The notes beneath the pieces were generated by a model, which saw only the letters and a list, made by a program, of their open reading frames with translations, ran no database searches and was not told where the DNA came from. The translations under genes were made by a program, and so were the position numbers. 64,000 nucleotides of DNA, taken from an uncultured Gemmatimonas sp. Its GTDB lineage: Bacteria > Gemmatimonadota > Gemmatimonadetes > Gemmatimonadales > Gemmatimonadaceae. The DNA is taken from NCBI GenBank assembly GCA_964355025.1, contig CAYHCW010000001.1:8488-72487 (forward strand). Reading direction: 5' to 3'. Of the stretch, positions 36,798 through 58,870 are shown one piece after another (the stretch's first letter is position 1; each line of letters begins with the position of its first letter).

Positions 36798-36831
36798 GGT
36801 CGTCTCTCCCGTGGCCTCGCGCGCGAATGTA

Positions 36832-39800: not shown

Positions 39801-40137
39801 CGCGGTGGTGCTCGTGGACCACGTCGCGGAGCTGCGCGAGGGTCATCGTCCGCGTCTCGCCGCCCTCGTCGTGCTTGACCTTCACGGTGGCGCCGTTGCG
39901 CGCGATGACGTGGTAGTGGCCGCCGTCCACGCGGAAGGCGGCGCCGACCTGCATATCGTCGTCGTGCGCGAGGCCGCGCCCGAGACGCGCGGTGGCGCGG
40001 TAGATGTAGCGGTAGCGCGTCTTCCCTGTGCGCGTCGTGTGCCCCGTCGGTACTTTTGAAAGGTACTTATGGGCGAGGCCCTTGAGGAGAGCGAGGAGCG
40101 GGCCGGGGCGACGCCAGAATGGGACGGCGGCACTCAT
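36832..40137 (-). CDS. Giant virion-module protein P1101 with HExxH zincin-like motif
   Basis: Contains the shared N-terminal module. HELLH at 38128-38142, preceded by AHYQP..IAINMG and followed by TEVLARGVEQYL. The C-terminal segment WDYGEIRG..DGDALDAYIG resembles a pyrophosphatase-type core. ATGA overlap with the portal stop. Confidence 0.6.
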   Translation of the reverse strand: MSAAVPFWRRPGPLLALLKGLAHKYLSKVPTGHTTRTGKTRYRYIYRATARLGRGLAHDDDMQVGAAFRVDGGHYHVIARNGATVKVKHDEGGETRTMTLAQLRDVVHEHHRDALKEVGHRAAQDVHAARLHGTAKQRARAEAYHANIVRAFGGMMEWFAKIPAGGDAFHEAHAPKGHAQRRRVRDALALLEGSRTLEGAGSYDDKGRLNLSPSDLAALHIVQRHYGDLAGFAVGANWTEHDADARAWLKSLFTKTLGTDGADDATGLWKEGAGAFDGPVDRWAARSISRAVRALRSFVDFDLARDDLAIDRQRPLEGRAALAIERIIADARTAYYKDARGTRTAWEFLKNNLPQVRTQAGLVALKTLTSTSYKSGLVPAAAISELLGYTNLTRAEKGDEAAAHLRIVGTEPVGVLERAIEADKQLIRTTQVTAMERHHWDHRVAEATSAVNALLQPLYLGRDAQPFEAQTGIIDHHFTALKAEHSKVKQLFSERFGVQVVLDDDAYAAFATPAVGVRMGGSRDSDKEQSARWNRLSKVNFGADSVNIVPTVDKKASPAAKAAFNELNEASQSSTEARTATLRGVWHALEHFEKAAGFTKLDLSGLPLVISDRWVTAGANAHYQPTNSPTDVDRETMGKRKLQADTRSSIGPHIAINMGFEKSLGHELLHYIENRIAVRVQHQQVGNVSGTMTRLSPPHVRASAKVHRDLGLPHGPAGSTPDLLAAEHAMIKASTETRNHQYIGNMASWLVRHAGDAEFQTPDGRRLHDATEAEVAGVAGGKELLSFHRAVKATGGYERFKDKDAQGDVLRKLMTELGGDTYDASDERNAYYQMGTEVLARGVEQYLHQQLADTGVVAPTLTHVSYSGGAQSAYFDPTEFREKIAPHVKAVLAVFGDNLTKGARLLATLVKAGLAQVPHYAPHRPPMGPATKRRRKCPFVGTVDFQGLTVDVENARGSYREGVAEDGTAWRTLMRWDYGEIRGAGGMDGDALDAYIGPDHDSPLVVVVHQKDPATGKPDEDKVFLGWRTAVAAVAAYKRQYDAPGFYGGHVTMSIGRFKRLAMDPAREGKRIGRRAHAGAGTVAKAGPLATAFGVCNRLWT

Positions 40138-41819
40138 GCCGCTTCGACTATCCAGGCCCTTACGCCGCTATGGTGGCTCGGCGCCGGCACCATCGCGCGC
40201 CGAGCGCCGGGGCGACGCGGGCCCTTGCGCACGAGGCGGCCGTCGGCGAGCGCTTGCTCGCCCGACTTGACGAGCTGGCGCGTCCAGTCATCGACGCTGT
40301 TCCACCGCGTGCCCTTGATGGTGTCTGCATCCATGAAGCCGCTCTGCTGGTCGTCGGGCGGCATCGCGCCGTCGAACGGCTCGTCGTCCTCGCCCTCGCC
40401 GGGGGCGCCGCCTGGAGGCGCCGCGCCGTCACGCGCGCTCATAGCGGCCGACGCGAACTCCTGCGAGAGCGGGAGGTCGGCAATCTCGGAGTCGAGGCGC
40501 TCGAGGTCGTGCTCGTCGCGGAGCTCGTTCGGCGTCTTGTAGGTCTTGACCGCCTCCATCGCGAGCTTGTGGCGCTCAATCTCGGACATCGCGCCGAAGC
40601 CGCCGAACTCCATCATGAAGTCGGGGTCGAGCGGCTGGACAATCCACGTCGTGAACCACCATCCGAGCGAGCGAAGGATGGGGCGTAGCCCGCGCTCTTT
40701 GGAGGCGACGATGCGGTCGCCGGGACCTTGCGTGCTCAGCGCGGAGGTCTGGCCTTCGTTGCCGTAGATGAGGCCGTTTTCGGCCGGGTCCATGCCGTAG
40801 ACGAGGTGGGCGAGCTTGACGCGCCAGTTAATCCACTGGCTGTATTCCATATCCTTGTTCGTTTCGGACAGGGAGACGGCCTTGATGTCCTCGTGCATGC
40901 GCGGGTCGAGCTGAATGAAGGGCGTCCGCGCGGCGTTGCGCGGGCCCGTGAGCATGGCGGTGACGCTGCGCCGGAAGGCGCCCCAGACCTTACCGTCCAT
41001 GGTCGACATGACGGCGATGATGTGGTTCGCGTGCACGCCGTTGGTAAAGTTTACCGAATTGAACGTCTCGGCGTTCACGAGGTCGGTAATCACTACCACC
41101 AACTCGTCGAGCTCCGGAAAGCCGTACCGACCGATGGCCTGCAACGTGCGCGGGCGCCGGATGCCCCAAATCATCTCGTCGCGGGTGAACTCGGCGACGA
41201 CGCGGCCCGTGGAGTCGCGCTGCACCATCTCGGGCTCGCCGGGCTCGGGCCACGCCTGCCCACGCGCTCGGGCGGCGTCCTTGGGCTTGGCGAGGCGGAT
41301 GGTCGTCGCGTCGGAGGGCACGTAGCCGCAGGGCTTGCCGAGGCGGTTGTGCAGCACCTCGGCGTTGAGCTGGTCGTAGGTGAGCGAGTCGCGCATCATG
41401 GCCCGCACGGCGAGCTCCATGTTGCCGGGGCCCCATCGCCCGCCAGCGACCATGAGGACGTTCTCGATTTCGGTGGAGCGCCGCTCGGCGGCGGCCGTCA
41501 TCTTCGCCTTGCGGTCGCGCAGGGCCACACGGAAGCCGAGCTCGTAGGGCGACGACTGCGGCATGCAGAAGTCGGCCACCTGGTTGATGCGCGTGTTGAT
41601 GATGCCGCTGATGACGGGGACGCGGCTCATGGCGATGAGCTGGCGGTAGTCGAGGCCGAGCGCGCCGGGGTGGAAGGCGCTGTAGAGCGGGCTGGAGGTG
41701 TCCTCGAAGCCGAGGATGAGCGGGTCGACGTTGTGGACCTTGGGCTCGGCGCGGTTCGCTTCGATGAGCGCGGCGTCGCCGGGCTTTACGCCCTTGTCCT
41801 TGCGTCTGCGTCGGGCCAC
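40134..41819 (-). CDS. Portal protein
   Basis: 561 aa from GTG 41819, just after the upstream stop at 41828. Size, acidic C-terminus and position at the head of the late block next to MuF-associated genes support the call. The N-terminal 44 codons of the ORF-track entry were rejected. Confidence 0.6.
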   Translation of the reverse strand: MARRRRKDKGVKPGDAALIEANRAEPKVHNVDPLILGFEDTSSPLYSAFHPGALGLDYRQLIAMSRVPVISGIINTRINQVADFCMPQSSPYELGFRVALRDRKAKMTAAAERRSTEIENVLMVAGGRWGPGNMELAVRAMMRDSLTYDQLNAEVLHNRLGKPCGYVPSDATTIRLAKPKDAARARGQAWPEPGEPEMVQRDSTGRVVAEFTRDEMIWGIRRPRTLQAIGRYGFPELDELVVVITDLVNAETFNSVNFTNGVHANHIIAVMSTMDGKVWGAFRRSVTAMLTGPRNAARTPFIQLDPRMHEDIKAVSLSETNKDMEYSQWINWRVKLAHLVYGMDPAENGLIYGNEGQTSALSTQGPGDRIVASKERGLRPILRSLGWWFTTWIVQPLDPDFMMEFGGFGAMSEIERHKLAMEAVKTYKTPNELRDEHDLERLDSEIADLPLSQEFASAAMSARDGAAPPGGAPGEGEDDEPFDGAMPPDDQQSGFMDADTIKGTRWNSVDDWTRQLVKSGEQALADGRLVRKGPRRPGARRAMVPAPSHHSGVRAWIVEAA

Positions 41820-41827: not shown

Positions 41828-42181
41828 CTACCCGTGCGTCGCGACGCCGTAGGACTCGATGCCCACGACCGAATTGCCGGTCGTGCCGACGAGCACGATG
41901 CGGATGGCGCGGAAGCGCTGGCGCGGCAGGAGCGTGCCGAGCGCGGACCACGAGCCGTCGGGGCCGAGCGTGACGACGCTGCCCTCGCCGAGGCCGACGT
42001 CAATTTGCTCCCACTTGTCGGCCGGGCCGAGGACCCAGACGTTCCACGTGCCGCCGCCGAGGTCGATGCACTGCACTGTGTGCTGCGCGTAGCGCTCTTC
42101 GGTGGCGTAGCCGAGCGTGGACCTGTCGAGGTCGATGGTCGTGCCGAGGTCGGCTTCGAGGAGTCGTTTGGCCTTGTACAT
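41828..42181 (-). CDS. Small beta-rich protein, first gene of the late block
   Basis: 117 aa from ATG 42181 with a GGAGG RBS. RFRAIRIVLVGTTGN is weakly reminiscent of discoidin/galactose-binding-like folds. Confidence 0.4.
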   Translation of the reverse strand: MYKAKRLLEADLGTTIDLDRSTLGYATEERYAQHTVQCIDLGGGTWNVWVLGPADKWEQIDVGLGEGSVVTLGPDGSWSALGTLLPRQRFRAIRIVLVGTTGNSVVGIESYGVATHG

Positions 42182-42205
42182 GCGCGCCTCCGGCAGACGG
42201 GCACG

Positions 42206-42234
42206 AGCGTACGCGCACGCGGAACGGGGGTCAA
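42206..42234 (-). promoter_or_regulatory. Sigma70-like promoter candidate TTGACC-N17-TACGCT for the late block
   Basis: Minus strand: TTGACC (42229-42234), a 17-nt spacer, TACGCT (42206-42211). A GGAGG RBS and ATG 42181 follow. Confidence 0.4.
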
Positions 42235-42547
42235 GCGAAAGACGGGGCTTTGAATGCGCGAGGGCGGCTCCCTCGCGGGAACCGCCCCAACGCTCCACCT
42301 GACATCGCGTCACGGCAGTCAGGGCCGCGCCCTCGTCGCCGGCCAGCGCGAGAGAGCCACCGCGCTTTCCCGTTCTGCCGAGGGGAGGATGCGCGGGACG
42401 CTGCCGCATTCCCGGGGTCGCAGCGGCGCGAGTCGGACGTCGTACGGCGCCCACGAGGCTTGTCCCGACGAGGTCCCGGAGACTGGCGCGTCCGCCAGCG
42501 TCGGGCAGTTTCGCACGACTGCGGGGTTGCGTGTTTTATTTGTTTAG

Positions 42548-42590
42548 TAGCGCTAATTATTTCCTTGCGTGATTAGCGCTGCGCTAATAG
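42548..42590 (+). promoter_or_regulatory. Operator/promoter: 17-bp palindrome ATTAGCGCTGCGCTAAT plus upstream half-site
   Basis: Perfect palindrome at 42572-42588 overlapping a -10-like TAATAG (42585-42590). Half-site TAGCGCTAAT at 42548-42557. AT-rich context, 45 nt upstream of ATG 42634. Confidence 0.5.
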
Positions 42591-42633
42591 TCTTCGAGGT
42601 GCAAGGGGCGAGGCCCCGGAAGGAACGTGAACC

Positions 42634-42807
42634 ATGAAGACGCAAAAGCTCCTGACCGCCGACATCGGCGTGCACATCCGCACGGTGCGCGACCACTACA
42701 CGACGCCGCGCGGCGCCGAGTACCTGCGGGCGATGGGCGCCGCCTCCCCGGCGACCGAAATCACCCGATACGACGCGCTCCTCGCGCGGCTGGCGAAGGA
42801 GGGTTGA
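42634..42807 (+). CDS. 57-aa HTH-like protein (below the ORF-track size cutoff)
   Basis: Read from the sequence: MKTQKLLTADIGVHIRTVRDHYTTPRGAEYLRAMGAASPATEITRYDALLARLAKEG. GGAAGGA RBS. The stop is 3 nt before the next ATG. Confidence 0.45.
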   Translation: MKTQKLLTADIGVHIRTVRDHYTTPRGAEYLRAMGAASPATEITRYDALLARLAKEG

Positions 42808-42810
42808 GCC

Positions 42811-43209
42811 ATGAGCCGCGTTCGCTACGGCCAATCCGGTTACTCTGGCCTTTCGCGCTCCAACCGCGCCGTCGAGGCCGAGTCCAACGACCGCCTCCCC
42901 ATGACGCGAGCCGTCGCCGCCATCCGCAAGCGCGCCGGCTGCACGGCGCGGCAAGCCCGCGAGGCGTGCGCGGCCGTCGGTGCCGCCGAATGGCACCACG
43001 TGGGGAAGTACGCGGCTCGCGTCAACTACTACGACGTCGGCGCGGCGTGCAACTGGCTCGCCGCGAAAGACGCCATCGCACGGCTTCCGGGCGACGCCCG
43101 CGAGCGCTTCCGACGCAAGGAAGCGACGCTCGCCGACCTCGCCCGCGAAGCCGACACGGACGAGCGCACTGTCGAGCGCTTCCTGTATCGCGACTGGACC
43201 GGCGAGTAG
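42811..43209 (+). CDS. Hypothetical 132-aa protein
   Basis: Tightly follows the small HTH gene. SNRAVEAESNDRLPMTRAV at the N-terminus. Family not recognised. Confidence 0.4.
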   Translation: MSRVRYGQSGYSGLSRSNRAVEAESNDRLPMTRAVAAIRKRAGCTARQAREACAAVGAAEWHHVGKYAARVNYYDVGAACNWLAAKDAIARLPGDARERFRRKEATLADLAREADTDERTVERFLYRDWTGE

Positions 43210-43259
43210 TCCGACGTCGCGCCCAACCTCCGAGCCCGCGCTCGGGGGAACGGCGCGGC
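43205..43259 (+). repeat. Intergenic repeat copy 1 (AGTAGTCCGACGTCGCGCCC .. hairpin .. GGAACGGCGCGGC)
   Basis: Starts in the last sense codon and stop codon of 42811..43209. Hairpin CCGAGC/GCTCGG. Shares a 20-nt identical head and a 13-nt tail with copy 2. Confidence 0.6.
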
Positions 43260-43291
43260 ACCGGACGCCGCCCACGACCTGAGAGGACACC

Positions 43292-43732
43292 ATGAGCGAC
43301 TACGACGTGCGACTTGAGACCGACGCCGACTACCTCAACCTGCTGACGCGCAAGCTCTTCCATGCGGGCTTCGCGCAACGCGCGGTGAACGCCAAGTGGC
43401 CCGCCTTCGAGGCGGCCTTCATCGGCTTCGAGCCCATCCAGGTCGCGTGCATGGACGAAGACGACCTCGAGCGACTCGGGCGCAACCCGAACATCGTGCG
43501 CAACCGCCGCAAGCTGCGGGCGACCGTGAACAACGCGCGCCGGTTCTGTGAGGTGGCGGCCACGCACGGAAGCTGGCGGGCGTGGTTCATCGCGTCGCGC
43601 AATCAGCCCTACGAGTTGCGTGCCGAGGCGCTCCGGCAGAGCCTCGACCTCATCGGCCCGACGACGGCGTTCTACTTCATGCTCGAAGCGGGCGAAGCGA
43701 CGCTCGCTGACAAGCCGGAAGGCGTGCAGTAG
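43292..43732 (+). CDS. DNA-3-methyladenine glycosylase I (Tag)-like protein, N- and C-terminally reduced
   Basis: LFHAGFAQRAVNAKW.. FEPIQVACMDEDDLERL..NPNIVRNRRKLRATVNNARRF..GSWRAWF follows the Tag family core order (compare IIRHRGKIQA..NAR in E. coli Tag). Confidence 0.6.
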   Translation: MSDYDVRLETDADYLNLLTRKLFHAGFAQRAVNAKWPAFEAAFIGFEPIQVACMDEDDLERLGRNPNIVRNRRKLRATVNNARRFCEVAATHGSWRAWFIASRNQPYELRAEALRQSLDLIGPTTAFYFMLEAGEATLADKPEGVQ

Positions 43733-43787
43733 TCCGACGTCGCGCCCCACCGCCGAGGACCGTACATCCTCGACGGAACGGCGCGGC
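43728..43787 (+). repeat. Intergenic repeat copy 2
   Basis: Starts in the last sense codon and stop codon of the Tag-like gene. Same 20-nt head AGTAGTCCGACGTCGCGCCC, hairpin CGAGGA/TCCTCG, same tail GGAACGGCGCGGC. Confidence 0.6.
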
Positions 43788-43815
43788 GCCTGACTCGCCG
43801 CGAACGGAGGAACCT

Positions 43816-44436
43816 GTGAGCGACCGATTCCAAGAGACTGAGCGCGAGGGTGGCGAGTGCCCGTCGTGCGGTACGCCCGCCACATGGCGCGAGTGCTGCG
43901 AGTGCGACGAGGCGGCGTGGGTTATCGACTGCGGCCACTACGCGCAACCGCGACCGTTGGCGGCTGGACGGGTCGACGGATCCGAGGCGCATCGGACGTT
44001 CTGCGAGGCGCACGCCGAGCCGTTCGCCGACCCCGGCAAGGTCGATGTCCGCCCGACGCTCGCCAACTGCAAGGACTGCGGCGCCGAGCACGACGTGGAC
44101 ACGATGACGCTGCTCGCGGGCGACGTCGACACCTACCTCTGCAACGCCTGCGAGAACGAGCGCGAGCGGCCGAAGTACATCAACGTCTACAAGGTGACGC
44201 GGCACTACGGCGGCCCCGAAGAGGGCGGCTGGTGGTACGACGCCGGTGCTCCGCTCGCGAGCGTGCCCATCATGGACGGCATGGACACCGAGGCCACGCG
44301 CGAGCAACTCGCGGCGCACTTCGCCGGCGAGGCCTGCGGCGACATCGGCAGCGTGCTCGGCGGCGCCGAGGTGCACGTCACGCTCGAGCCGCACATGGCG
44401 ACGAGCTACCCGGCCACGCGGCCGCACTACGAGTAG
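43816..44436 (+). CDS. Cys-rich protein with conserved YGGPEEGGWWYD domain
   Basis: GTG start with a GGAGG RBS. N-terminal CxxC clusters (CPSCG, CCEC, CKDCG, CNAC). The C-terminal VYKVTRHYGGPEEGGWWYD motif is one I recall from uncharacterised phage proteins. Confidence 0.45.
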   Translation: MSDRFQETEREGGECPSCGTPATWRECCECDEAAWVIDCGHYAQPRPLAAGRVDGSEAHRTFCEAHAEPFADPGKVDVRPTLANCKDCGAEHDVDTMTLLAGDVDTYLCNACENERERPKYINVYKVTRHYGGPEEGGWWYDAGAPLASVPIMDGMDTEATREQLAAHFAGEACGDIGSVLGGAEVHVTLEPHMATSYPATRPHYE

Positions 44437-44439
44437 GAG

Positions 44440-44790
44440 ATGAGCGTGGACGACCTCGACCCGATGGACGCACTTCGGACGGTGCTCGCGGAGACCGACG
44501 ACCCGCCGACGCACTACCGCGGCAAGGTGCGCGCGGAGCCCTTCGTGCAGGGCGGCCACTACTGGCGCGAGCTCGACCCGGAAGAGGTGCTGCGCAAGCA
44601 CACGACGGAAGGCTCCGCGCACTTCGCTGGACTGGCCTACGTCGAGGACGAGCACGGCGAGCCGAAGCGCGGCTATCGCGAGCTACGCGGCGACCTCAAG
44701 GTATGGAAAGAGGGCGGGCGCATCTACCTCGGCCGCGACGCGGAGCGGTGGGAACTCGTGCCGCTTGACCTGTCCTTGGCGCGGCGCTAA
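44440..44790 (+). CDS. Hypothetical 116-aa protein
   Basis: The ATG is 3 nt after the upstream stop. Balanced composition. No motif recognised. Confidence 0.4.
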   Translation: MSVDDLDPMDALRTVLAETDDPPTHYRGKVRAEPFVQGGHYWRELDPEEVLRKHTTEGSAHFAGLAYVEDEHGEPKRGYRELRGDLKVWKEGGRIYLGRDAERWELVPLDLSLARR

Positions 44791-44813
44791 GTTCCCGTCT
44801 GGAGGTTCCACCG

Positions 44814-45071
44814 ATGGATGACACCCGTACCGAGGCGCAGCGCCTTCGTGACCTCGTCGAGGAGTTGCGCGGCCTCGGGCTCGACAAGGGCAAGGTTGCA
44901 AAGCGGCTCTGCGTGCACCCGACGACGCTGAGCCGCTACCTGGCGCGTGCTCGCGAGGACGACGGCGTCGAGCCCGTCGAGTCGCGCTACAGCATCGAGC
45001 CGAGCGCGCACGTCGTTGAGCTGGCGCGGCACGTCGTCGCCGAGGTCACGAGCGCGGCGGTGGCGACGTGA
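44814..45071 (+). CDS. HTH DNA-binding protein
   Basis: 85 aa. LDKGKVAKRLCVHPTTLSRYLARARE is a typical helix-turn-helix. Confidence 0.45.
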   Translation: MDDTRTEAQRLRDLVEELRGLGLDKGKVAKRLCVHPTTLSRYLARAREDDGVEPVESRYSIEPSAHVVELARHVVAEVTSAAVAT

Positions 45072-45310
45072 TGGCCCGCAAGCCATCGGGATGGACAGAG
45101 ACGCCGCCGACGGTGCCGGGGTGGTACTTCTTCGCTTGGCGCGTCACGCCGCCGCGAGATGCGGACGTTGATCCTGGGCCGTACTATCGCATCGCGCTCG
45201 TGGAGGCGTGGCGAAACGGTCGCAATGAGGTCGTCGCGCCGCCAACGCAAGGTGCGCCGTCGCGCGGCCTGTGGCACAAGGCCACGCTGCCACCCTTGCC
45301 GGCGCCCTGA
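45068..45310 (+). CDS. Hypothetical 80-aa protein
   Basis: ATGA-type overlap upstream. Trp/Pro-rich. No motif recognised. Confidence 0.35.
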   Translation: MMARKPSGWTETPPTVPGWYFFAWRVTPPRDADVDPGPYYRIALVEAWRNGRNEVVAPPTQGAPSRGLWHKATLPPLPAP

Positions 45311-45669
45311 TGGGCGTCGACTACGCCATCGCGTGCCTCGACTGCAAGCGGGCCGTCTACATCGACCGCATCGGGCGGGACATCGTGTACGCCCACGAGG
45401 CTCCCGACGGGACCGCCGACGAGCCGATGGTGCTTGCTGTGCCCGCCGACGAGCGCGAATGCGATGGCAGTCTCCTCAAGCCCGTGGTCACGCAGGGCTT
45501 GCTCGTCCTCGCCGAGGTGGACAGCGACCGAGACGCCGGCGAATGGGTCGCCATCTCCTCGTGGTGCAACGGCCACCCGTCGCCGTGCCGTCTCGTGCTC
45601 CTCGATGACGGGTGGGGCAATACGATGCACGCCGCTCGCGACGGGTGGCCGCCGATGGAGTCGTTGTGA
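45310..45669 (+). CDS. Hypothetical 119-aa protein
   Basis: ATG 45310 overlaps the upstream TGA by 1 nt. N-terminal CLDCK. Confidence 0.35.
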   Translation: MGVDYAIACLDCKRAVYIDRIGRDIVYAHEAPDGTADEPMVLAVPADERECDGSLLKPVVTQGLLVLAEVDSDRDAGEWVAISSWCNGHPSPCRLVLLDDGWGNTMHAARDGWPPMESL

Positions 45670-47291
45670 CCGACACTCCCCGCCGCATCGTCGCCGCGTT
45701 CCAAGGCTCCGAGCCGATGCCGTTCGACGGCACGATGGACTTGCCGCCCGAGACGCCGCTCTACGGCGACACGTTCGATGGCGAGGCGCTGACGCTCGGC
45801 GGCTATTGGCGGAGCATCGAGGAGGAGTACCGCACGCTCTTCGCCGTCGAAGATGCCATCGCCCGTGGGCATCTCGACGCGGCCACGCGAGAACGTCTAC
45901 AGGCCAAGGTCGCTGCGATTCGGGACCGTGACGACGGTGACCTAGGCGTCCTCCAATGGACCGTCGAGAACGCCGTGCCGCTCGCGAGGCACGCGAAGCT
46001 CGAGGCGCAGCTTTGGCGCATCCACGTCGCGACGCCGGGCGGCGAGGGCATCCCGCCCGAGGTCGTCGTGCTGCCGCCCGAAGCGCCGCCTGCGATGTCG
46101 GCGGCGAGCGCTGCCGTGCCAATGGTTGCGGTGACTTCGGATAATTCCGGCGAACGCCCACCCGCCGTGCGCGCCTGCGACGACCCCGGCCATCAACGCC
46201 GCGCCGTCCTTTCGCGCTGGGACAAGGACAACGAGCGCCCGACGCGCCAGGCCGTCGCCGCACTTGCGCGAGCGGGGCCGATGACGCCGCCCGAGGTGGC
46301 GCTCGCCGTCTGCATCAAGCTCCGCTACGCCTACAAGCTCTTGCGCCGGATGGTCGTGCGCGGCGAGGCCGTGAACCCGCGCTTCGGCGTGTACGCGCTC
46401 CCTGATACGCCCATGCCCGTCGAGAAGCTGCCGTCCGAGGTCGCGCGTGGGGCGGGACGGTCCGAGCGGCGCATGGCGACGATGCGCGCGGAGCGTGCGA
46501 CGACGGCAACCCCTGCAACAACGCCCAATGCGGACGCGTGCAACGGCAAGGACAACGACTGCGACGACGGCGACGCGTGCACGACGGACGCCTCGAATGA
46601 GGTCGTAAAACAGGAAACGCAGCCTCCCGGTGTCACGATTACCGAGGTGCCCACGTCCGCGTCCGACGACTCCGCTCCGAATGAGATTGAAAGGCCGCAA
46701 TCGCACGACGGCGACGCTGTAGCTCACTCCAACGCGCCGACGCCTGCGACGACGGCGACGAAGCGGCGCCGAGCCCGCCCGTGGACCACCGAGGACGACG
46801 CCGAGCTGCGACGCCTCGCGCCAACGAGTGCAACACGGAAGGTTGCCGCCACGCTCGAACGTGATTGGAAGGACGTCTCGCAACGGGCCGAGGTGCTCTG
46901 CGTATTCTTCAAGCGTGACCGCGATTTCTTCCGCCAGGAAGCGCAGAAGGATGAAGAGCGCGTCCACGACTTCGAGTCGGGCGAGTCGTCGCTCTGCGGT
47001 CTGGCAGAAGGGGACGTGTCCGCGCGCTTCGACTGCGTGCGACGAGGGCAACGCACGTCCGAGGCCGAGTGCATGGCGTGCTTCACGGACGCGCACCGGC
47101 GCGGGCATCTCTCGAAGCCCGCCGACCGCCAGCACGTCGCGTGGCGCTGCGCGCAGGGCGCAGCGCTGCGACTGCGCTACGCCTTCGAGTTGTCGCCGAC
47201 GCAGGGCACCATCGAGGCGCTGCTCGACTACTCGACGCTGAGCCCGGCGTGTCCAGAGCACAAGCGGGCGTGCCGGGCGCTCAGGGTGTGA
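45666..47291 (+). CDS. Multidomain DNA-binding candidate (wHTH + Cys/Asp motif + Myb/SANT-like)
   Basis: GTG 45666 (GTGA overlap). MTPPEVALAVCIKLRYAYKLLRRMVVRGEAV is wHTH-like. CNGKDNDCDDGDAC is MopE-type metal-motif-like. RPWTTEDDAELRRLA..VAATLERDWKDVSQRAEVL is Myb/SANT-like. Confidence 0.45.
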   Translation: MTDTPRRIVAAFQGSEPMPFDGTMDLPPETPLYGDTFDGEALTLGGYWRSIEEEYRTLFAVEDAIARGHLDAATRERLQAKVAAIRDRDDGDLGVLQWTVENAVPLARHAKLEAQLWRIHVATPGGEGIPPEVVVLPPEAPPAMSAASAAVPMVAVTSDNSGERPPAVRACDDPGHQRRAVLSRWDKDNERPTRQAVAALARAGPMTPPEVALAVCIKLRYAYKLLRRMVVRGEAVNPRFGVYALPDTPMPVEKLPSEVARGAGRSERRMATMRAERATTATPATTPNADACNGKDNDCDDGDACTTDASNEVVKQETQPPGVTITEVPTSASDDSAPNEIERPQSHDGDAVAHSNAPTPATTATKRRRARPWTTEDDAELRRLAPTSATRKVAATLERDWKDVSQRAEVLCVFFKRDRDFFRQEAQKDEERVHDFESGESSLCGLAEGDVSARFDCVRRGQRTSEAECMACFTDAHRRGHLSKPADRQHVAWRCAQGAALRLRYAFELSPTQGTIEALLDYSTLSPACPEHKRACRALRV

Positions 47292-47328
47292 CGGCCTCGC
47301 CCGTCATCGAATAAAACATTTATCACTA

Positions 47329-47374
47329 TCGCGCTAAAATACTTCGTGACAACGAATTAGCGCAGCGCTAATCT
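47329..47374 (+). promoter_or_regulatory. Operator/promoter: 17-bp palindrome ATTAGCGCAGCGCTAAT plus upstream half-site
   Basis: Palindrome at 47356-47372. GTGACA (47346-47351), a 17-nt spacer, TAATCT (47369-47374). Half-site TCGCGCTAAA at 47329-47338. 41 nt upstream of ATG 47414. Confidence 0.5.
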
Positions 47375-47413
47375 TAGGTCGTGGGTTGGAACTGCAACGG
47401 AACGGAGAACCGA

Positions 47414-47632
47414 ATGAGCCACTACCAGAAGACCATCGCCGAAGACCTCGCCAAGCTCGGCCGCGCCGACGTCGAGCCCAAGTTTGTCGAGGCCATCATG
47501 CGCGGCGAGTACGGCACGCTGGACCACCTCTCGCGGGCGAAGTTTGCCGCTGAGGCGCGCGTGGGCGTCGAGTGCTGGGACGAATGCGATGACGCGATGC
47601 GGCGCGAGATTCCCGCGTCCTACGGCCTGTAG
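47414..47632 (+). CDS. Hypothetical 72-aa protein
   Basis: ATG 47414 with a CGGAGAA RBS. MSHYQKTIAEDLAKLGR.. No motif recognised. Confidence 0.4.
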   Translation: MSHYQKTIAEDLAKLGRADVEPKFVEAIMRGEYGTLDHLSRAKFAAEARVGVECWDECDDAMRREIPASYGL

Positions 47633-47643
47633 AGGAGACGACG

Positions 47644-47868
47644 ATGAACCGCGATACGAAAATCAAGTGGTGGGACGTGGACGATATGGACGCGGGCGCC
47701 GTAGAAGAGGGCACGGCGGGCGACTTGCTCGACTACGACGAGACGGGCGAGATTGCCGATGCTCTCGCGGAACTCGACGCGGGCGCCGAGTACGCCCTCG
47801 TCGGCGGTGGCGCCGCGCCGTGCGTGCGTATCGAGTTGGCTGTCGACGACGGCGACGAGGAGGCGTGA
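47644..47868 (+). CDS. Small highly acidic protein
   Basis: 74 aa, rich in Asp/Glu (WWDVDDMDAGAVEEG..DDGDEEA). Confidence 0.35.
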   Translation: MNRDTKIKWWDVDDMDAGAVEEGTAGDLLDYDETGEIADALAELDAGAEYALVGGGAAPCVRIELAVDDGDEEA

Positions 47869-47870
47869 CC

Positions 47871-48464
47871 ATGGCCATCACGACCGGCTTCGCTGAGTTG
47901 GACCGCATCATCAACCCCACCGCGCCCGGACTGCCTACCGGGCTCATCTCCGAGGTCTACGGCGCGGACGCAGCGGCGCTCAATGCCGTGGCCGCCGCCA
48001 TCGTCAACCGTGGCGCCGTGGCCTTCGACTGCCGCGACTGGCCCGCTGAATCCGTCGCGCGTCGCGCCTCCGACGCCGTGCACGCTGGGCAGAGCGTCAT
48101 CATTGAGCACGTCGAGGCGTGGCGTGCGACGAGCTCCATTGAGCACGATGGGCCCGGTGACGCGCCCGACGTTTTACCAACCGACTGGTGCTACGCGAGC
48201 GAGCGCACGCTGTCGCGGTTTCTCCGCGCGCTCTCGCCACTCGCCACGCGGACGGGCGCCGCTGCGGTGTTCACGCGTTACGAGGTCGCCCGCCGACCCT
48301 ACACAACCGATGCGGCGGCCGCCGTCCTCGTGCGCCCGCTGCGCTTCTACGCGAGCGTTCGCGTCGAGTTGCGCCCGCTCGGCAAGCACTCGGTGCGAGC
48401 CTTCGTCAGCAAGAACAAGCTCGTAGCGCCGCACGAGACGCTCGACCTGCTCTACGTCAGCTAG
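47871..48464 (+). CDS. RecA-fold protein lacking the Walker A P-loop
   Basis: TTGFAELDRII..GLPTGLISEVYG aligns with RecA STGSLSLD..GGLPMGRIVEIYG. RFYASVRVELRP..FVSKNKLVAPHETLDLLY aligns with FYASVRLDIRR..VVKNKIAAPF..ILY. GPESSGKT is replaced by GADAAALN. Confidence 0.65.
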   Translation: MAITTGFAELDRIINPTAPGLPTGLISEVYGADAAALNAVAAAIVNRGAVAFDCRDWPAESVARRASDAVHAGQSVIIEHVEAWRATSSIEHDGPGDAPDVLPTDWCYASERTLSRFLRALSPLATRTGAAAVFTRYEVARRPYTTDAAAAVLVRPLRFYASVRVELRPLGKHSVRAFVSKNKLVAPHETLDLLYVS

Positions 48465-48541
48465 CGCGATTCCCGTTGACCCGCTACGCCAACCGCCGTA
48501 CCTTCAAGCCTTGCCATGGGCGCGCACATGGGCGCCTCTCC

Positions 48542-48823
48542 TCAGAGTTGTGGTTCTGCCTCGTCCTCTCGCGCTTCGCCCAATGACCGCTGCGAGAGGG
48601 CGAGGCCCCTTTCCTCCGTGATGGGCGTGTAGGGCGACCTCGGCTTGACGCGGCGCGGCAGCGGCGCCCCGGGAACGGCCAACTCGATGACCTCGTCGGC
48701 GCCGCACGTCGCGCAGTGATAGAGCGCGTGGCTTCCACTCGCGGTGACCTCGGCGCGGCCGACGGTGCAGCCGTTCGGGCACTTGGCGTTGACGTACCAC
48801 TCGCCTGAGTGCACCTCACTCAC
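48542..48823 (-). CDS. Small zinc-ribbon protein downstream of terminase
   Basis: 93 aa from GTG 48823 (GTGA overlap with the terminase stop). CPNGC .. CATCG. Confidence 0.4.
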   Translation of the reverse strand: MSEVHSGEWYVNAKCPNGCTVGRAEVTASGSHALYHCATCGADEVIELAVPGAPLPRRVKPRSPYTPITEERGLALSQRSLGEAREDEAEPQL

Positions 48824-50613
48824 CAGCGGTCGCGCCCGAGGTCCATGATGTCCTTGAGCTCCTCCCACATCTCCGACGTGTCCTCGAAGTTGCCCGCCCG
48901 GTGCACGGACGGCGACTCGCCGGCGTCGATGACCCGCTGAGCTTCGGCGGCGACCTCTTGCAGCGTCTCGATACCGCTGGACGAGCGGTGCTGACCTCGG
49001 ATGGCCATCTTGAGGTGGCGGACGGCCATCCAGAGCGACATCACCTCGTCGGCGGTGTGCACGCCCGGGGTGGGGTCGAAGAGCTGCAATCCTTCGACGA
49101 GTTGCGCCATGAGCGGATGCATCTCACCGTTCTCGTCGCAGGGAATCGCGAGGAGCCCGAGCATCATGTCCGAGGCCATGGAGTCGATGCCGTAGTCGGC
49201 GTCGTGCTTCTTGTCGAAGGTCGTGAAGCACGGCTCGACGTGCAGGCCCTTGGCGGCGGCTTGCTCGGCTATCCAGAGCTGCGCGGACACGGACTCGACG
49301 ACGAAGGTTGGCGGACGCGGATACTCCGGGTCGCGCTTGTCGGAGTAGCGTTCGTCGAGGTCACGGCACCGGGAGAAGAACTCGTGCGACGTCCACCGCG
49401 CGTCGGGCGCGTCGGTCTCGAGGTAGATGGGCGCCATGACGCCGTCGGGCGCTTGGAGGACGGGTACGAGCGCGTTCTTGTCGGCGTCGCGGACCTTGCT
49501 GAATGCGAGGTCGGCGCCGATGGCGATGCGCGCGCCTTCGGGCAAGCTGTCGACCTTGGAGCGGAGCTGCATGCCACGGCCCACGTCGAGCGCCTTCTCG
49601 ATGGCGCCGCGGAAGCGGTTGCCTTCCACGAGGCGGTTGCGGCGGCAGAAGAGCGCGCGCTTCCACGAGTTCGGTTGCTGCCGAATCCAGCGGCAGACGC
49701 GCTCAACGCTCCACCGCGCTGGCCAGTGCACCATGCCCGGCGCGGGCCCGGCGCCGCCCGAGTGCGCGTAGATTTGCCACGCCTCGATGCTGCCCGTGGC
49801 GACCGGCATCTCGTAGTGCGTCCATCCCTCGCGACTCGCCGACACGCTGGCCGCGTCGTTCTCCCACCATGCATTACAGAGGAACCAGATGCGGCCGTCG
49901 TCAGCGACGCGGCCCGCGAGCGTGTCCTCAATCTTGCCGAGCGTTTCCTTGCGCCGGTGGTCCGTGAGCGTGTTCTCGCGCGTGAGGATGTCGTCGAGGA
50001 TGAGGATGTCGAGGCGGGCACTGAGGATGCCCGAGTCGAGGCCGCACGCGCGGATGGACGGGTCCTTGCGGTTGAAGCCCGGCGCTTGGATGCGGTAGCC
50101 GTCGCGGCGGGACCACGGCTCGCCGGGCAGGATGGTTGGGAAGACCTCGTGGAAAGCGCGGTGGCCCTCAAACGGCGACGGCTCGATGTACTTTGACATC
50201 ATGGTCGCGATGTTCTGCGCGAGAATGGCCGTGCTGGAGAACGTGGCGATGGTCAACGACGGGTCGCGGCCGAGGAGCCACAAGGCGCAGATGGCGGCGA
50301 TGTTCGTCTTGCCGCACTCGACGGAGCCTGTCACGAGCACCTTGCGGAGGTCGGGCCGGTCGACCTGGAAGCCCGTCAGCTCGCGGATGAGCTGCGCGTG
50401 GTAGGGCTGGAGGTCGACGCGGGCGCCGGTGCGCTCGTCGCGCAGAACGTAATGCACGAAGGCGATGGGGTCGATGCGGCAGAGCTCGTGTCCGAGTGCG
50501 CGCCGCTTCGGGTCGTTATCGGAGAGGGCGAGGTCGAGCCGCAGGAGGTTGCGGCGGATGTCCTTCCACTCGGCGACGGCGGCGGGCGGGCCTCGGGGTG
50601 TTGCTGCGCTCAC
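48820..50613 (-). CDS. Terminase large subunit
   Basis: Walker A VTGSVECGKTN and Walker B LDILILDDI. The C-terminal half has acidic residues consistent with an RNaseH-like nuclease. 597 aa. Confidence 0.75.
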   Translation of the reverse strand: MSAATPRGPPAAVAEWKDIRRNLLRLDLALSDNDPKRRALGHELCRIDPIAFVHYVLRDERTGARVDLQPYHAQLIRELTGFQVDRPDLRKVLVTGSVECGKTNIAAICALWLLGRDPSLTIATFSSTAILAQNIATMMSKYIEPSPFEGHRAFHEVFPTILPGEPWSRRDGYRIQAPGFNRKDPSIRACGLDSGILSARLDILILDDILTRENTLTDHRRKETLGKIEDTLAGRVADDGRIWFLCNAWWENDAASVSASREGWTHYEMPVATGSIEAWQIYAHSGGAGPAPGMVHWPARWSVERVCRWIRQQPNSWKRALFCRRNRLVEGNRFRGAIEKALDVGRGMQLRSKVDSLPEGARIAIGADLAFSKVRDADKNALVPVLQAPDGVMAPIYLETDAPDARWTSHEFFSRCRDLDERYSDKRDPEYPRPPTFVVESVSAQLWIAEQAAAKGLHVEPCFTTFDKKHDADYGIDSMASDMMLGLLAIPCDENGEMHPLMAQLVEGLQLFDPTPGVHTADEVMSLWMAVRHLKMAIRGQHRSSSGIETLQEVAAEAQRVIDAGESPSVHRAGNFEDTSEMWEELKDIMDLGRDRW

Positions 50614-51008
50614 TCCGGGTCATCGGCGCCGTCGAGCGCCACGAGGTGAAGGCGGTCGGGTTCGGTCGCCAGTCGCATCGACTCGCCGCGGAGGTCGGCG
50701 AGCTCCGCGTAGAAGTCCTCGTAACGAAGGTGTCCGAGCATGCCCGGCGCAGCGCGGCGAACCACGAGCACGAGGCGCGCGGCCTGCACGTGCATCGTGG
50801 TCGGCTGCACGCCGCACCCCTTGCCGACGATGCCGTCGTCGCGGCGCGCTTGCGCCTTCCACCGCGTGAGCGTCTGCCGCGTGACGCCGAGCCACCATGC
50901 GAACTGCGCATCGGTCACGCCGAGACGGGCCTTGATGGCGCAAATCTCTTGCGCGGGTGTGACGCGCGGTGATTGCGTGGCGGCGCTTTCGCCAATGGCA
51001 GCGCTCAT
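50610..51008 (-). CDS. XRE-type HTH protein, small terminase candidate by position
   Basis: 132 aa with ATGA overlap to the large terminase. IKARLGVTDAQFAWWLGVTRQTLTRWK is an HTH. Confidence 0.4.
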   Translation of the reverse strand: MSAAIGESAATQSPRVTPAQEICAIKARLGVTDAQFAWWLGVTRQTLTRWKAQARRDDGIVGKGCGVQPTTMHVQAARLVLVVRRAAPGMLGHLRYEDFYAELADLRGESMRLATEPDRLHLVALDGADDPE

Positions 51009-51529: not shown

Positions 51530-51849
51530 CGCCTCGCCATCTCCTGGAGTTGCCGCACGCTCGTCTTGCCGCCGCGCCAGAGCGGCCACGCCCGTTGCAG
51601 GAAGTCGACGGCCCACGCTTTGGCGTCTCGGCGGTCGTGCACGTCCAGCTCGCGGCGGAAGGCTTGCGCGTAGCCGTCGGGGTCGACGAGCTCGCCCTTG
51701 GCGACAATGGTCACGTGGCCTGGCGTCGTGCGCAGCACGCACCATAGCTGCCACGGCCGTCGCTCGTAGTTGCCGCCTGACCAGCGCTTCTTCTTGGGCG
51801 TGAGCGGCGACTGCGCGTCCTTGCCGGGCACGCGGGCGAGGTCGGTCAT
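51526..51849 (-). CDS. Hypothetical 107-aa protein
   Basis: Translationally coupled on both sides. Trp/Arg-rich. No motif recognised. Confidence 0.35.
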   Translation of the reverse strand: MTDLARVPGKDAQSPLTPKKKRWSGGNYERRPWQLWCVLRTTPGHVTIVAKGELVDPDGYAQAFRRELDVHDRRDAKAWAVDFLQRAWPLWRGGKTSVRQLQEMARR

Positions 51850-52112
51850 GGCGCCGATGCCGCTTCCCGCGCTCGATTCGCGCGGCGAAAGCCGTAGGCG
51901 CTGAGCGCGCTAATGAGGTGATGTTCGACCTCGTCGGCGCGGTCCTCGCGGAGCATTTCGACCAGCGCGACGCACGCCTTGCGGCCGAGGTCGTCACCGC
52001 GCACGAGGAAGTCGAAACCCGCAGTGACGAGCGCTTTGCGCGCGTCGTCTACACGGCCCGCCTTGAGCGCTTTGAGCGCAGCGACGGTCTGCTCGTGGGC
52101 TACGTCGGCCAT
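51846..52112 (-). CDS. Hypothetical 88-aa protein
   Basis: ATG 52112. Only the distal part of ORF 51846..52661 looks protein-like (MADVAHEQTVAALKALKAGRVDDARK..). Confidence 0.3.
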   Translation of the reverse strand: MADVAHEQTVAALKALKAGRVDDARKALVTAGFDFLVRGDDLGRKACVALVEMLREDRADEVEHHLISALSAYGFRRANRAREAASAP

Positions 52113-58829: not shown

Positions 58830-58870
58830 TAGGCTGTTGCGCCGAGGGGATGACACGGCCGTTTTTGGGT

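Follow-up and report, generated by a model that had tools for sequence, protein, structure and literature searches.

The conserved inverted repeats of phiC31 and the stoperators of L5 and Bxb1 show how one repressor can act on many short sites, spread over several kilobases and located at early promoters or directly behind them; stoperators lack symmetry and interfere with elongation. In SPO1-like phages, the host-takeover module occupies the terminal redundancy; its early genes are small and numerous and are driven by strong promoters. Anti-CRISPR operons are limited by their own product, a small dimeric HTH protein (Aca1, Aca2 and others) that is encoded in the operon and acts on inverted repeats over its strong early promoter (PMC6765145, PMC9410906). 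Between the core blocks of T4-type genomes, the PeSL (promoter-early stem-loop) cassettes of hyperplastic regions hold small non-essential ORFs with repeated promoter motifs and stem-loops, and the indels that distinguish close relatives occur exactly at these motifs (PMC2839356, PMC4122927).

Here, we analyzed a stretch of 64 kb (the window) from the 72.5-kb genome of an uncultured, high-GC and lytic-looking phage. We interpret, with moderate confidence, an island of small genes in this genome as a hypervariable early accessory region, devoted to host takeover or counter-defence, in which one dimeric Xre-type repressor would control three promoters.

Layout and gene content of the island

Twelve small plus-strand genes, covering about 6 kb (42.5-48.5 kb), part the portal gene from the large terminase gene. 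This is the arrangement given in the original prediction; an independent gene call, in the ENA copy of the contig, has the same twelve genes, and PHROG matches agree with the assignment of the portal (40134-41819, minus strand) and the large terminase (48820-50613, minus strand). On the left, the portal gene is followed by a minus-strand gene of 117 aa (41828-42181); about 340 nt of non-coding DNA (42182-42520) then lead to the region of the first operator-like site. On the right, the island ends in a convergent 77-nt gap (48465-48541) between g12 and a minus-strand gene of 93 aa (48542-48823), and the same junction is present in an independent assembly (L137). A 132-aa HTH protein is encoded in the small-terminase position (50610-51008, minus strand). 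Transcription of the block from its three putative promoters would run rightward, in the direction opposite to that of the head and packaging genes on either side.

Comparison with a relative of about 90% identity (L135) identified the first gene, g1 (42634-42807, 57 aa), as what an in-frame deletion has left of a DUF2958/LPD25 protein; it corresponds to the first 11 and last 48 residues of a 275-aa homologue. The LPD25 match of this homologue, the first gene of L135, is weak and sub-threshold (0.0031, 18.6 bits against a cut-off of 27); LPD25 is a polyvalent-protein domain. g2 (42811-43209, 132 aa) carries a weak C-terminal winged-HTH (HTH_35, 0.0066), and g3 (43292-43732, 146 aa) is the reduced Tag-like protein that had been proposed, with a 3-methyladenine glycosylase I fold (PF03352, 1e-18) from which both termini are missing. 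The Cys-rich proteins are g4 (43816-44436, 206 aa, 12 Cys), whose C-terminal domain is phrog_30656, and g8 (45310-45669, 119 aa, 5 Cys). No family was found for g5 (44440-44790, 114-116 aa), g7 (45071-45310, 79 aa) or g10 (47414-47632, 72 aa). The near-orphan g9 (45666-47291, 541 aa) has weak winged-helix (residues ~190-255), Myb/Nrf1-like (~360-423) and Cys-rich C-terminal (~431-530) segments. Two further descriptions were also accurate: the 74-aa product of g11 (47644-47868) is very acidic (pI 4.05, 22 acidic and 4 basic residues), and g12 (47871-48464, 197 aa) has a RecA-core fold in which a degenerate Walker A, GADAAALN, stands in the position of the P-loop. None of the cargo proteins of the island, for which a role in takeover or counter-defence is putative, matches a known anti-defence family.

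The accessory nature that had been proposed for the module is supported by comparison, as the relative keeps the operators but differs in gene content at five points within 3.7 kb. L135 encodes the full-length 275-aa homologue of g1, has an unrelated 77-aa gene in place of g2, is without g3 and g8, and has three added genes. Conservation of shared genes is uneven: g5 and g7 are 93% and 83% conserved, and 12 of 70 residues are changed in g7 compared with 4 of 48 in g9. The indel of g3 falls exactly at a duplicated stem-loop spacer. Copy 1 (43205-43291, plus strand) has an outer stem, GTCGCGCC/GGCGCGGC, around a variable inner hairpin; copy 2 (43728-43815, plus strand) is 81% identical to it, and an exact 20-mer, AGTAGTCCGACGTCGCGCCC, is common to both. 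L135/L136 have a single spacer, to which copy 1 is 100% identical, and the L135 spacer consists of the 5′ part of copy 1 and the 3′ end of copy 2. g3 is a cassette that is absent from L135. In this comparison the island is seen to gain and lose genes quickly, and the turnover would proceed by recombination at repeated regulatory spacers.

Operator-like sites and the promoters around them

The palindrome ATTAGCGC-N-GCGCTAAT occurs in exactly two perfect copies in the window, at 42572-42588 and 47356-47372, as originally predicted and far above chance. When up to 3 mismatches are allowed, the 64 kb contain three sites compared with 0.15 expected, a number reached in 0 of 100 shuffles. These are the two perfect copies and a degenerate one with 3 mismatches, CTTGGCGCGGCGCTAAG (44775-44791), which precedes the HTH gene g6 and had previously been missed; within this mismatch limit, no further site exists in the 64 kb. 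The consensus is (A/C)TT(A/G)GCGC-N-GCGCTAA(T/G), a 17-bp dyad. The perfect palindromes end 45 nt before the ATG at 42634 and 41 nt before the ATG at 47414, within the 40-45 nt first given, and the half-sites reported upstream of them are real (GCGCTAAT at 42550 and GCGCTAA at 47331). Outside the palindrome arms, the two strands of the window together contain only five copies of the 7-mer GCGCTAA (42550, 44784, 47331, 51907 and 31056). The copy at 44784 is within the third operator-like site, while those at 42550 and 47331 take the matching position in promoters P1 and P2, 15 nt ahead of the start of the -35 hexamer.

All three putative promoters are on the plus strand. P1 (42565-42593) consists of TTGCGT (-35, 42565-42570), O1 ATTAGCGCTGCGCTAAT (42572-42588) and TAGTCT (-10, 42588-42593), preceded by an AT-rich upstream element (42541-42564) with an auxiliary half-site, GCGCTAAT (42550-42557). 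The -10 of P1 had been read as TAATAG; TAGTCT, 17 nt after TTGCGT, is the more likely hexamer, and the relative reads TAATCT at this position, identical to the -10 of P2. For P2 (47346-47374), the earlier reading of GTGACA (47346-47351), 17 nt and TAATCT (47369-47374) was correct; the spacer holds O2 ATTAGCGCAGCGCTAAT (47356-47372), and the upstream element (47329-47345), with the half-site GCGCTAA (47331-47337), includes GCGCTAAWWTAYTTC, the counterpart of the P1 element at equal distance to the -35. P3 (44765-44793) overlaps the stop codon of g5 and comprises TTGACC (44765-44770), O3 CTTGGCGCGGCGCTAAG (44775-44791) and TAAGTT (44788-44793). P2 and P3 have a common layout, in which the -35 is followed by 4 nt and the 17-mer, with TANNNT from base 14 of the latter; only 1 of 300 shuffles gives any such site. 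The register of P1 is 3 nt off. The -10 hexamers match TATAAT at only 3 of 6 positions, and the sigma-70-type reading of the promoters is an assumption. Since the third site lies before g6 in the register of site 2 relative to the -35 and -10, we divide the island into three predicted promoter-operator units: P1 (g1-g5), P3 (g6-g9) and P2 (g10-g12).

At each predicted promoter, the putative operator occupies the spacer between -35 and -10 and extends into the -10 hexamer; therefore, a bound dimer would be expected to exclude RNA polymerase. The auxiliary half-sites of P1 and P2 lie about three helical turns upstream. Both operators within the coverage of the relative, O1 and O3, are kept: O1 is identical in L135, and O3 differs in L135/L136 at the central base only. 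Each retains all 16 specified bases, and the sole change is in the central N although it alters a codon of g5. The absence of changes in 32 operator positions at ~6-7% divergence is only weakly significant (p ~0.1).

We find it hardly credible that the sites are products of chance or purely structural hairpins in DNA or RNA that no protein recognises, acting as a terminator or as a hotspot of recombination. The RNA could fold into a 6-bp stem closed by a 3-nt loop, site 2 lies 65 nt after the stop of g9, and repeats of the island do mediate recombination. However, the shuffles never reach the observed number of sites, no U-tract lies behind the hairpin, the sites are upstream of predicted starts with site 3 inside coding sequence, and they are kept in the relative except for the central base.

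Prophage operators and candidate repressors

Four unrelated prophages of proteobacteria have an identical 17-mer in the region between their divergent CI-like and Cro-like genes: L001, L002 (=L041, Nitrosomonas oligotropha Nm75), L004 and L042 (a Polaromonas MAG). Their CI N-terminal domains are 49-66% identical. The prophage 17-mers begin 3-5 nt after a TTGACA/T hexamer and extend into the -10, and, as these sequences indicate, the 17-mer serves there as the CI/Cro operator. Sequence and analogy strongly suggest that one palindrome-binding factor co-regulates the units of the island. We consider it improbable that the palindrome is a phage-specific promoter element or a site of positive control, from which an activator such as g9 or a protein of the host recruits RNA polymerase so that the units form a middle-class regulon. 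The -10 hexamers are weak and might depend on assistance, winged-helix and Myb-like segments are present in g9, and the shared upstream element (about -45 to -55) could serve as an UP site or bind an activator. However, a dyad between -35 and -10 that overlaps the -10 is in the classical position of a repressor, the same 17-mer has that position as a CI/Cro operator in the four prophages, and the 3-nt shift of P1 relative to P2 and P3 would be poorly tolerated by an activator that needs a fixed helix face.

The original prediction counted three HTH-type proteins in the island and listed the products of the genes at 42634, 44814, 45666 and 57420 as possible binders. g1 (42634) was removed from both groups: it has no family match, its AF2 model is a helical hairpin with no HTH among the Foldseek matches, and it is a remnant of the 275-aa DUF2958 protein. 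g2 was dropped as a binder of the palindrome because it is missing from the relative that keeps the operators. As the comparison with the relative shows g1 to be a remnant, g2 to be replaced, and both g3 and g8 to be absent, only g6 (44814) and g9 (45666) are left as conserved island proteins with DNA-binding features, the former Xre-type and the latter with weak winged-helix and Myb-like segments only. The fourth protein listed, a 117-aa HTH_3 protein outside the island (57420-57773, minus strand), remains as a candidate acting in trans.

We propose that a dimeric Xre-type HTH protein binds the three sites and that it is most likely g6 (44814-45071, plus strand, 85 aa; HTH_31, 3e-4), the alternative being the HTH_3 protein. 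The AF2 model of g6, predicted from a single sequence (pLDDT 77), has no matches other than small dimeric autoregulators that bind operators, namely C.BclI (probability 0.98), other C-proteins, CapH-N, ClgR, SinR and DNA-bound Aca1, with weak Foldseek E-values (0.26 or worse). The HTH half of g6 differs from that of the relative by 8 synonymous and 0 amino-acid changes, and its neighbours are less conserved. The HTH_3 protein is equally conserved, at 97% in a relative. Both proteins score ~81% hhalign probability against the CI N-terminal profile, and neither keeps the recognition-helix residues that are invariant in the CI family operating on the 17-mer. With g6, encoded behind the weakest operator, as the binder, the island would fire on entry and then throttle itself, as in Aca and C-protein systems; with the HTH_3 protein, shut-off in trans would come from the leftward operon.

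The prophages also raise the possibility of lysogenic immunity, which we regard as unlikely but worth weighing. The phage would be temperate, and a CI-type repressor, encoded in the rest of the genome or being the HTH_3 protein, would shut the three promoters in the lysogen; the island would be a first lytic or moron unit and not self-limited. The identical 17-mer, with equal promoter overlap, is consistent with such a switch, the alignment of the HTH_3 protein with the N-terminal domain of the prophage CI spans 50 columns and takes in the GW..P motif, and the ~8.5 kb of the 72,562-bp contig beyond the 64 kb might encode an integrase or a CI/Cro pair. Against this, the 64 kb encode no integrase, recombinase or S24 repressor/peptidase and no BLAST-level homologue of the prophage CI or Cro proteins, and neither candidate has the recognition-helix residues. 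Moreover, no divergent repressor gene flanks the sites, and the HTH_3 gene lies within a long operon with the terminase at its end.

The HTH domain of g6 is paralogous to that of the 132-aa protein directly upstream of the large terminase gene (E 6e-8). If that small-terminase-like protein bound the 17-mers, they might be packaging signals of a pac or cos region located between the terminase and portal genes, a reading to which we attach very little probability. The sites are less than 8 kb from the terminase genes, and the ~340-nt non-coding stretch adjoins site 1. Nevertheless, all three are in promoter register, 20-45 nt before gene starts and with -35 and -10 hexamers, they are spread unclustered over 4.8 kb, and in the prophages this sequence acts as an operator of transcription.

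Comparison with known systems

As in PeSL cassettes, g3 lies between two stem-loop spacers and the relative has one recombinant copy. However, the phage is not T4-type, the promoter-operators and stem-loop spacers of the island are separate rather than one composite, and the promoters carry a predicted repressor site. The g4 C-terminal domain has homologues in SPO1-like Bacillus phages, such as Mater and P59, and in 120-134-kb Streptomyces phages; in both groups they lie in terminal repeats, and in Streptomyces phages of about 131-134 kb, such as Coruscant, they are at both genome ends. These homologues, the weak LPD25 match, the gene-content differences, the position of the g3 indel and the lack of an integrase or S24 repressor in the 64 kb favour an accessory and early character of the island. 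In contrast to the SPO1-like module, the island is internal, between terminase and portal and on the opposite strand, and no other gene is in common. It resembles the actinophage regulons in repeating a short conserved site at putative early promoters under one presumed repressor; those phages are temperate, with identified repressor genes, whereas the island has only three sites.

The lambda-type CI/Cro regions of the four prophages share the identical palindrome, its 8-N-8 geometry, its placement and extra partial copies upstream. However, the sites of the window do not lie between divergent cI and cro genes, and the 64 kb are without a CI/Cro homologue, S24 domain or integrase. C-proteins (C.BclI, C.Esp1396I, C.EcoT38IS) are the best structural matches of the g6 model (probability up to 0.98) and likewise are Xre-type dimers; they act on dyad C-boxes that overlap the promoter of their own gene, so that expression is timed and limits itself. 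The island is without restriction or methylase genes, g6 shows no sequence-level membership of this family, and, to our knowledge, the operator sequence is unrelated to known C-boxes. With Aca anti-CRISPR operons, the island would share the character of a fast-evolving counter-defence operon, and the g6 model matches DNA-bound Aca1. It differs in having no known acr gene or Aca family match, in using one operator type at three promoters over 4.8 kb, and in the place of the HTH gene, which heads the middle unit, whereas the Aca gene ends its operon. Overall, no new mechanism is called for, and the island would clearly belong to a type of phage region that is already known, that of self-limited early accessory genes.

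Operator-like sites and predicted promoters

Independent gene calling on the ENA copy of the contig recovered the twelve plus-strand genes of the original prediction (g1-g12; 57, 132, 146, 206, 114, 85, 79, 119, 541, 72, 74 and 197 aa), a call with which the G+C content by codon position was consistent. PHROG profiles likewise bore out the minus-strand genes on either side, portal at 40134-41819 and large terminase (TerL) at 48820-50613. Both perfect palindromes are present, ATTAGCGCTGCGCTAAT at 42572-42588 (O1) and ATTAGCGCAGCGCTAAT at 47356-47372 (O2). They are mutually reverse-complementary, so their sole difference is the central, symmetry-neutral base. The window has a G+C content of 69%, and two of its five strongly AT-rich short stretches are the gaps that hold O1 and O2. 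When the window was searched for further copies of the 17-mer, allowing up to three mismatches, one more site was found at 44775-44791 (O3). Chance would give 0.15 sites at this threshold instead of three, a number not reached in any of 100 dinucleotide shuffles of the window. No additional 17-mer was found in the roughly 1.2 kb to the left and 0.8 kb to the right of the window within the 72.5-kb contig, which were read via end-proximal proteins.

The third site, CTTGGCGCGGCGCTAAG, retains the inner TT-GCGC-N-GCGCTAA core and overlaps the g5 stop codon, with the g6 ATG 23 nt downstream. Its predicted promoter, P3, consists of a -35 hexamer TTGACC (44765-44770), 4 nt, the 17-mer and a TAAGTT hexamer (TANNNT) that begins at base 14 of the 17-mer. 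P2 has the same layout (GTGACA, 4 nt, 17-mer, TAATCT), and a site with this combination occurred in only 1 of 300 shuffled windows. The promoter at O1, P1, is best read as TTGCGT (42565-42570) and TAGTCT (42588-42593) separated by 17 nt, a placement 3 nt off register relative to the other two sites; in a close relative the -10 hexamer of P1 is TAATCT, the same as that of P2. The discovery of a third site with the layout of the second, together with the P1 hexamers, suggests that the island consists of three promoter-operator units, in which P1 would drive g1-g5, P3 would drive g6-g9 and P2 would drive g10-g12. The half-sites predicted upstream of the palindromes proved to be genuine elements common to P1 and P2. 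Palindrome arms aside, the window has five copies of GCGCTAA, both strands counted; one copy lies within the third site, and two lie 15 nt ahead of the -35 hexamers of P1 and P2 in a similar GCGCTAAWWTAYTTC context. A lone GCGCTAAT half-site at 51907, lying without a partner half-site in the minus-strand gene 51846-52136, is probably due to chance.

Site 1 is flanked by a 117-aa head-region gene and g1, and sites 2 and 3 are co-directional with their neighbors and intergenic or intragenic. Between the head-region gene and P1 lie about 340 nt of GC-rich sequence (42182-42520) in which no frame shows a coding signature and Rfam gives no match; the fold of 42182-42560, at z -0.48, lacks significance. 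On the plus strand, a hairpin resembling a terminator, with a T-run behind it (42505-42539), stands just ahead of the AT-rich part of P1. Because composition and codon usage match the remaining genome (G+C 0.689 in the island versus 0.690 in the window; codon-usage correlation with structural genes 0.91), a recent foreign origin was rejected, and the island is resident rather than newly acquired. The original prediction had also held that portal and terminase are usually adjacent. Adjacency is common (L008 and L010) but not universal (L006 and L011) among our distant TerL relatives, L006-L012. These homologues, at most 30% identical, are too distant for synteny arguments, since homology of their portals to the window's portal could not be detected, and we dropped adjacency as evidence of insertion. 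The opposite-strand placement between terminase and portal is unusual and could not be shown to be derived. In L011, the interval from TerL to the likely portal (2242-4314) holds a Tad2-like gene of the anti-Thoeris family and five small genes, so the terminase-portal junction can host accessory genes in other lineages too.

Elsewhere in the window, the sole other strongly AT-rich intergenic region, 58859-59130, lies between the start of a leftward operon and a rightward operon and carries CAGACACCGACAC as two exact copies (58928 and 59118) and a near copy (59096); these repeats probably serve as iterons or as operators for a second regulator, and the region is possibly an origin. The rightward operon opens with a 59-aa ribbon-helix-helix-like gene (59321-59500), followed by a primase gene (59510-61870). 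On the minus strand at 29872-40137, three consecutive giant proteins (950, 1358 and 1101 aa) have a common repeated C-terminal module (D1, D6 and D11), and the 1101-aa protein matches InPase (PF18823) at 9e-31. Taken with the DarB-like helicase, DarA_C and Mu F domains found among the other window proteins scanned, the giants look like a packaged polyvalent set of the anti-restriction type. ThyX (335-1222), a nucleoside 2-deoxyribosyltransferase-like protein (52432-52971) and a DnaA C-terminal-domain protein (62178-62726) gave no pointer to the host; the ThyX is closest to that of a Rhodobacter phage (about 47%). Neither an integrase, a tyrosine recombinase nor an S24 repressor was found among the proteins scanned in the 64-kb window, and Rfam and tRNA scans returned no match.

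Gene turnover and the cassette joint

Neither DNA nor TerL protein had a match in GenBank phages, TerL had none in IMG/VR, and of 5.8 billion clustered proteins, the best TerL after the phage's own shares 30% identity. A profile built from g6 and its paralogue found no relatives in IMG/VR, and it retrieved an 81%-identical g6 homologue on two short contigs of a relative (ENA ERZ27247785 and ERZ27247837), L135 of 3661 bp and L136 of 1378 bp, which match the island as a mosaic at about 90% nucleotide identity. This comparison supports the description of the island as accessory: the relative keeps the O1/O3 core and gains, loses and replaces genes. O1 is identical; O3 is changed at the central base only, which turns a g5 codon from Arg to Pro, and the -35 and -10 hexamers of P3 are unchanged, with four changes in the 20 nt downstream. 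The g1 of the relative encodes a 275-aa protein with DUF2958 and a weak LPD25 (polyvalent-protein) domain. The window's g1 matches its first 11 residues and its last 48 and is therefore an in-frame deletion remnant. An unrelated 77-aa gene stands in place of g2, g3 and g8 are absent, the g4 C-terminus, g5, g6 and g7 are kept, and g9 follows g7 directly. In this relative, which retains the operators, g2, g3 and g8 are thus dispensable. The HTH half of g6 (43 codons) differs by eight synonymous and no amino-acid changes, compared with 12 of 70 residues changed in g7 and 4 of 48 in the g9 N-terminus. Three extra genes (88, 97 and 82 aa; L135 2409-3287) lie between g6 and g7 of the relative; the 71-nt gap ahead of them has a TTGACC hexamer and no 17-mer, and the 82-aa product has a CxxC...CxxC zinc ribbon.

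The indel at g3 lies between two paralogous spacers. The gaps before g3 and g4 (82-83 nt) are 81% identical over 112 columns, and both open with the exact 20-mer AGTAGTCCGACGTCGCGCCC, inside which lie the stop codons of g2 and g3. Both spacers (copy 1, 43205-43291; copy 2, 43728-43815) form nested hairpins in which the outer stem is conserved and the inner stem-loop differs, and neither contains promoter-like hexamers or the operator. L135 and L136 carry a single spacer whose hairpin is that of copy 1 and whose 3' end is that of copy 2; such a spacer is what recombination of copy 1 with copy 2 would be expected to yield, or else the target into which g3 and one spacer were inserted. Shuffling mediated by PeSL elements has been described in the hyperplastic regions of T4-type phages (PMC2839356, PMC4122927). 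Similarly, a repeated motif here flanks the variable g3, and an indel between close relatives maps to the motif. However, a PeSL unites a sigma-70 early promoter with a terminator stem-loop, whereas stem-loops and promoters are separate in the island. We also considered an integron gene cassette (IntI, attI, attC) and rejected it, since the window has no tyrosine recombinase and the repeat has only two copies.

The cargo is largely as predicted. The g3 product is indeed a reduced Tag-like protein, a Tag fold lacking both termini: it matches Adenine_glyco (PF03352) at 1.3e-18 over profile positions 23-119 of 177 and Tag structures in the PDB at 5e-14, and its 146 aa, against 183-188 aa, align from chain residue 33 to near 131. 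In E. coli Tag the Zn ligands lie in the terminal segments; g3 lacks these N- and C-terminal segments and is not a full-length Tag. The g4 product has 12 cysteines and a C-terminal domain (phrog_30656) with homologues in two phage groups: Bacillus phages Mater and P59 encode them within the terminal repeats, and large Streptomyces phages such as Coruscant carry them at either end. In SPO1-like phages, host-takeover genes lie in the terminal redundancy. The near-orphan g9 has weak winged-helix, Myb/Nrf1-like and Cys-rich segments, and a homologue search gave weak matches only, to its Cys-rich C-terminus. The 74-aa g11 product is very acidic (pI 4.05), and g12 is a RecA fold without a P-loop, having GADAAALN at the position of Walker A GxxxxGK[ST]; it matches the RecA structure 1xp8 at E 1.4e-7 and Pfam RecA at 9e-4, short of the family cut-off, and a homologue search finds g12 alone. 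The other island proteins had no family match.

Candidate repressors and the 17-mer in other genomes

The original prediction counted g1 (42634) among the HTH-type proteins. This was not borne out: the AF2 model (pLDDT 87.5) is a helical hairpin without an HTH match, and we rejected g1, a gene remnant, as a regulator. We also rejected g2, since the relative retains the operators but has another gene in place of g2. The only island proteins that are both conserved and equipped with DNA-binding features are g6 and g9. The AF2 model of g6 (pLDDT 77) matches almost exclusively small dimeric Xre-type autoregulators (C.BclI, C.EcoT38IS, C.Esp1396I, CapH-N, ClgR, SinR and Aca1-DNA; probability at most 0.98, with weak E-values), and the gene stands directly behind O3/P3. 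It has a paralogue, a 132-aa HTH protein (50610-51008, minus strand; 36% identity over 55 aa, E 6e-8), whose HTH is N-terminal and whose gene lies directly upstream of TerL and overlaps the TerL start; this protein has no match to a TerS family, and its candidacy as the small terminase is positional only.

Because g1 is a remnant, g2, g3 and g8 are dispensable in the relative, and g6 is conserved and has an autoregulator-like model, we favor g6 as the predicted repressor of all three promoters. The weakest operator would stand before g6's own gene, and g6 would act as a self-limiting repressor of P1, P2 and P3. The main alternative is that the repressor is instead the 117-aa HTH_3 protein encoded outside the island (57420-57773, minus strand). 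It too is conserved in a relative (97%), so conservation cannot separate the two candidates.

The exact 17-mer was scanned in IMG/VR, in one genome per GTDB species and in metagenomes. Most matches, for metagenomes among those listed, are either due to chance within coding sequence (ISAALI-type codons) or part of long REP-like hairpins, and no relative of this phage was found through the 17-mer in IMG/VR, in the GTDB genomes or among the metagenome matches listed. One coherent family emerged, in prophage contigs L001, L002 (the same as L041; Nitrosomonas oligotropha Nm75), L004 and L042 (a Polaromonas MAG), where the 17-mer lies between divergent CI-like and Cro-like genes. The CI-like proteins have Xre-type N-terminal domains that are mutually 49-66% identical, to which L001 adds a long C-terminal region, and the promoters combine a TTGACA/T hexamer, 3-5 nt and a 17-mer reaching into the -10, with partial copies upstream. 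Since the same 17-mer occupies the same promoter position in these prophages, it can, in this position, be regarded as a natural operator for dimeric HTH repressors. A different use, unrelated to the operator, is seen in the bacterial and metagenomic contigs L024, L048, L075 and L090, where the 17-mer is the tip of a far longer perfect hairpin that is REP- or terminator-like. We found no mention of the 17-mer or of the run accessions in the literature.

BLAST detected no homologue of the prophage CI or Cro proteins in the 64-kb window. Profile comparison to CI (hhalign) gave a generic Xre-HTH match, at about 81% probability, whether the query was g6 plus its paralogue or the HTH_3 protein, and nothing for g1 against the CI N-terminal domain; neither g6 nor the HTH_3 protein retains the invariant recognition-helix residues of the CI family. 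Convergence is the simplest explanation for the identical operators, unless the genome encodes a matching repressor outside the window. Because the operator is base-for-base identical to that of a CI/Cro family in prophages of Nitrosomonas, Polaromonas and other proteobacteria, and no repressor homologue is visible in the phage, we also considered that it serves as a shared "password", by which the island would be gated by the heterologous repressor of a resident prophage or by a CI/Cro pair outside the window. We regard this as very improbable; gating by a resident prophage, if true, would amount to inter-phage eavesdropping, with counter-defence genes silenced or licensed by the host's resident prophage.

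Significance and comparison with known systems

Overall, the association of the palindrome with the island is real and has more support than was available to the original prediction, and the island constitutes a testable predicted regulon in which three promoters share one operator and two candidate repressors are named. It belongs to a phage lineage without cultured or sequenced relatives, in which TerL is at most 30% identical to that of others and the island proteins are mostly orphans. Set against the 90% relative, the island emerges as the genome's fast-turnover compartment, and such compartments are the usual source of new host-takeover or anti-defence proteins in phages. Candidates for these roles are the P-loop-less RecA core beside the very acidic protein, the truncated Tag fold, and the conserved g4, g5, g7 and g9. 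The use of regulatory spacers as cassette-exchange joints, known from T4-type phages, is here extended to an unrelated high-GC phage. Current concepts are unchanged by the island, and its main value lies in a defined regulon and a pointer to candidate genes in an unknown lineage.

As in Aca-controlled systems, an HTH gene (g6) lies inside an operon whose predicted promoter bears an inverted repeat; scans of Pfam, PHROG and NCBIfam found neither a described Aca family nor a linked known acr gene. As in lambda-type operators, a dyad overlaps the -35 and -10 of a predicted promoter, with auxiliary sites nearby. In contrast to lambda-type CI/Cro regions, the island sites do not lie between divergent cI and cro genes, and neither an integrase nor an S24 autocleavage domain was found in the 64-kb window. 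The island is not a demonstrable member of the Aca, C-protein or lambda-type families. By analogy, it may work functionally like Aca-controlled anti-CRISPR operons and C-protein circuits, and it would resemble lambda-type operators in architecture.
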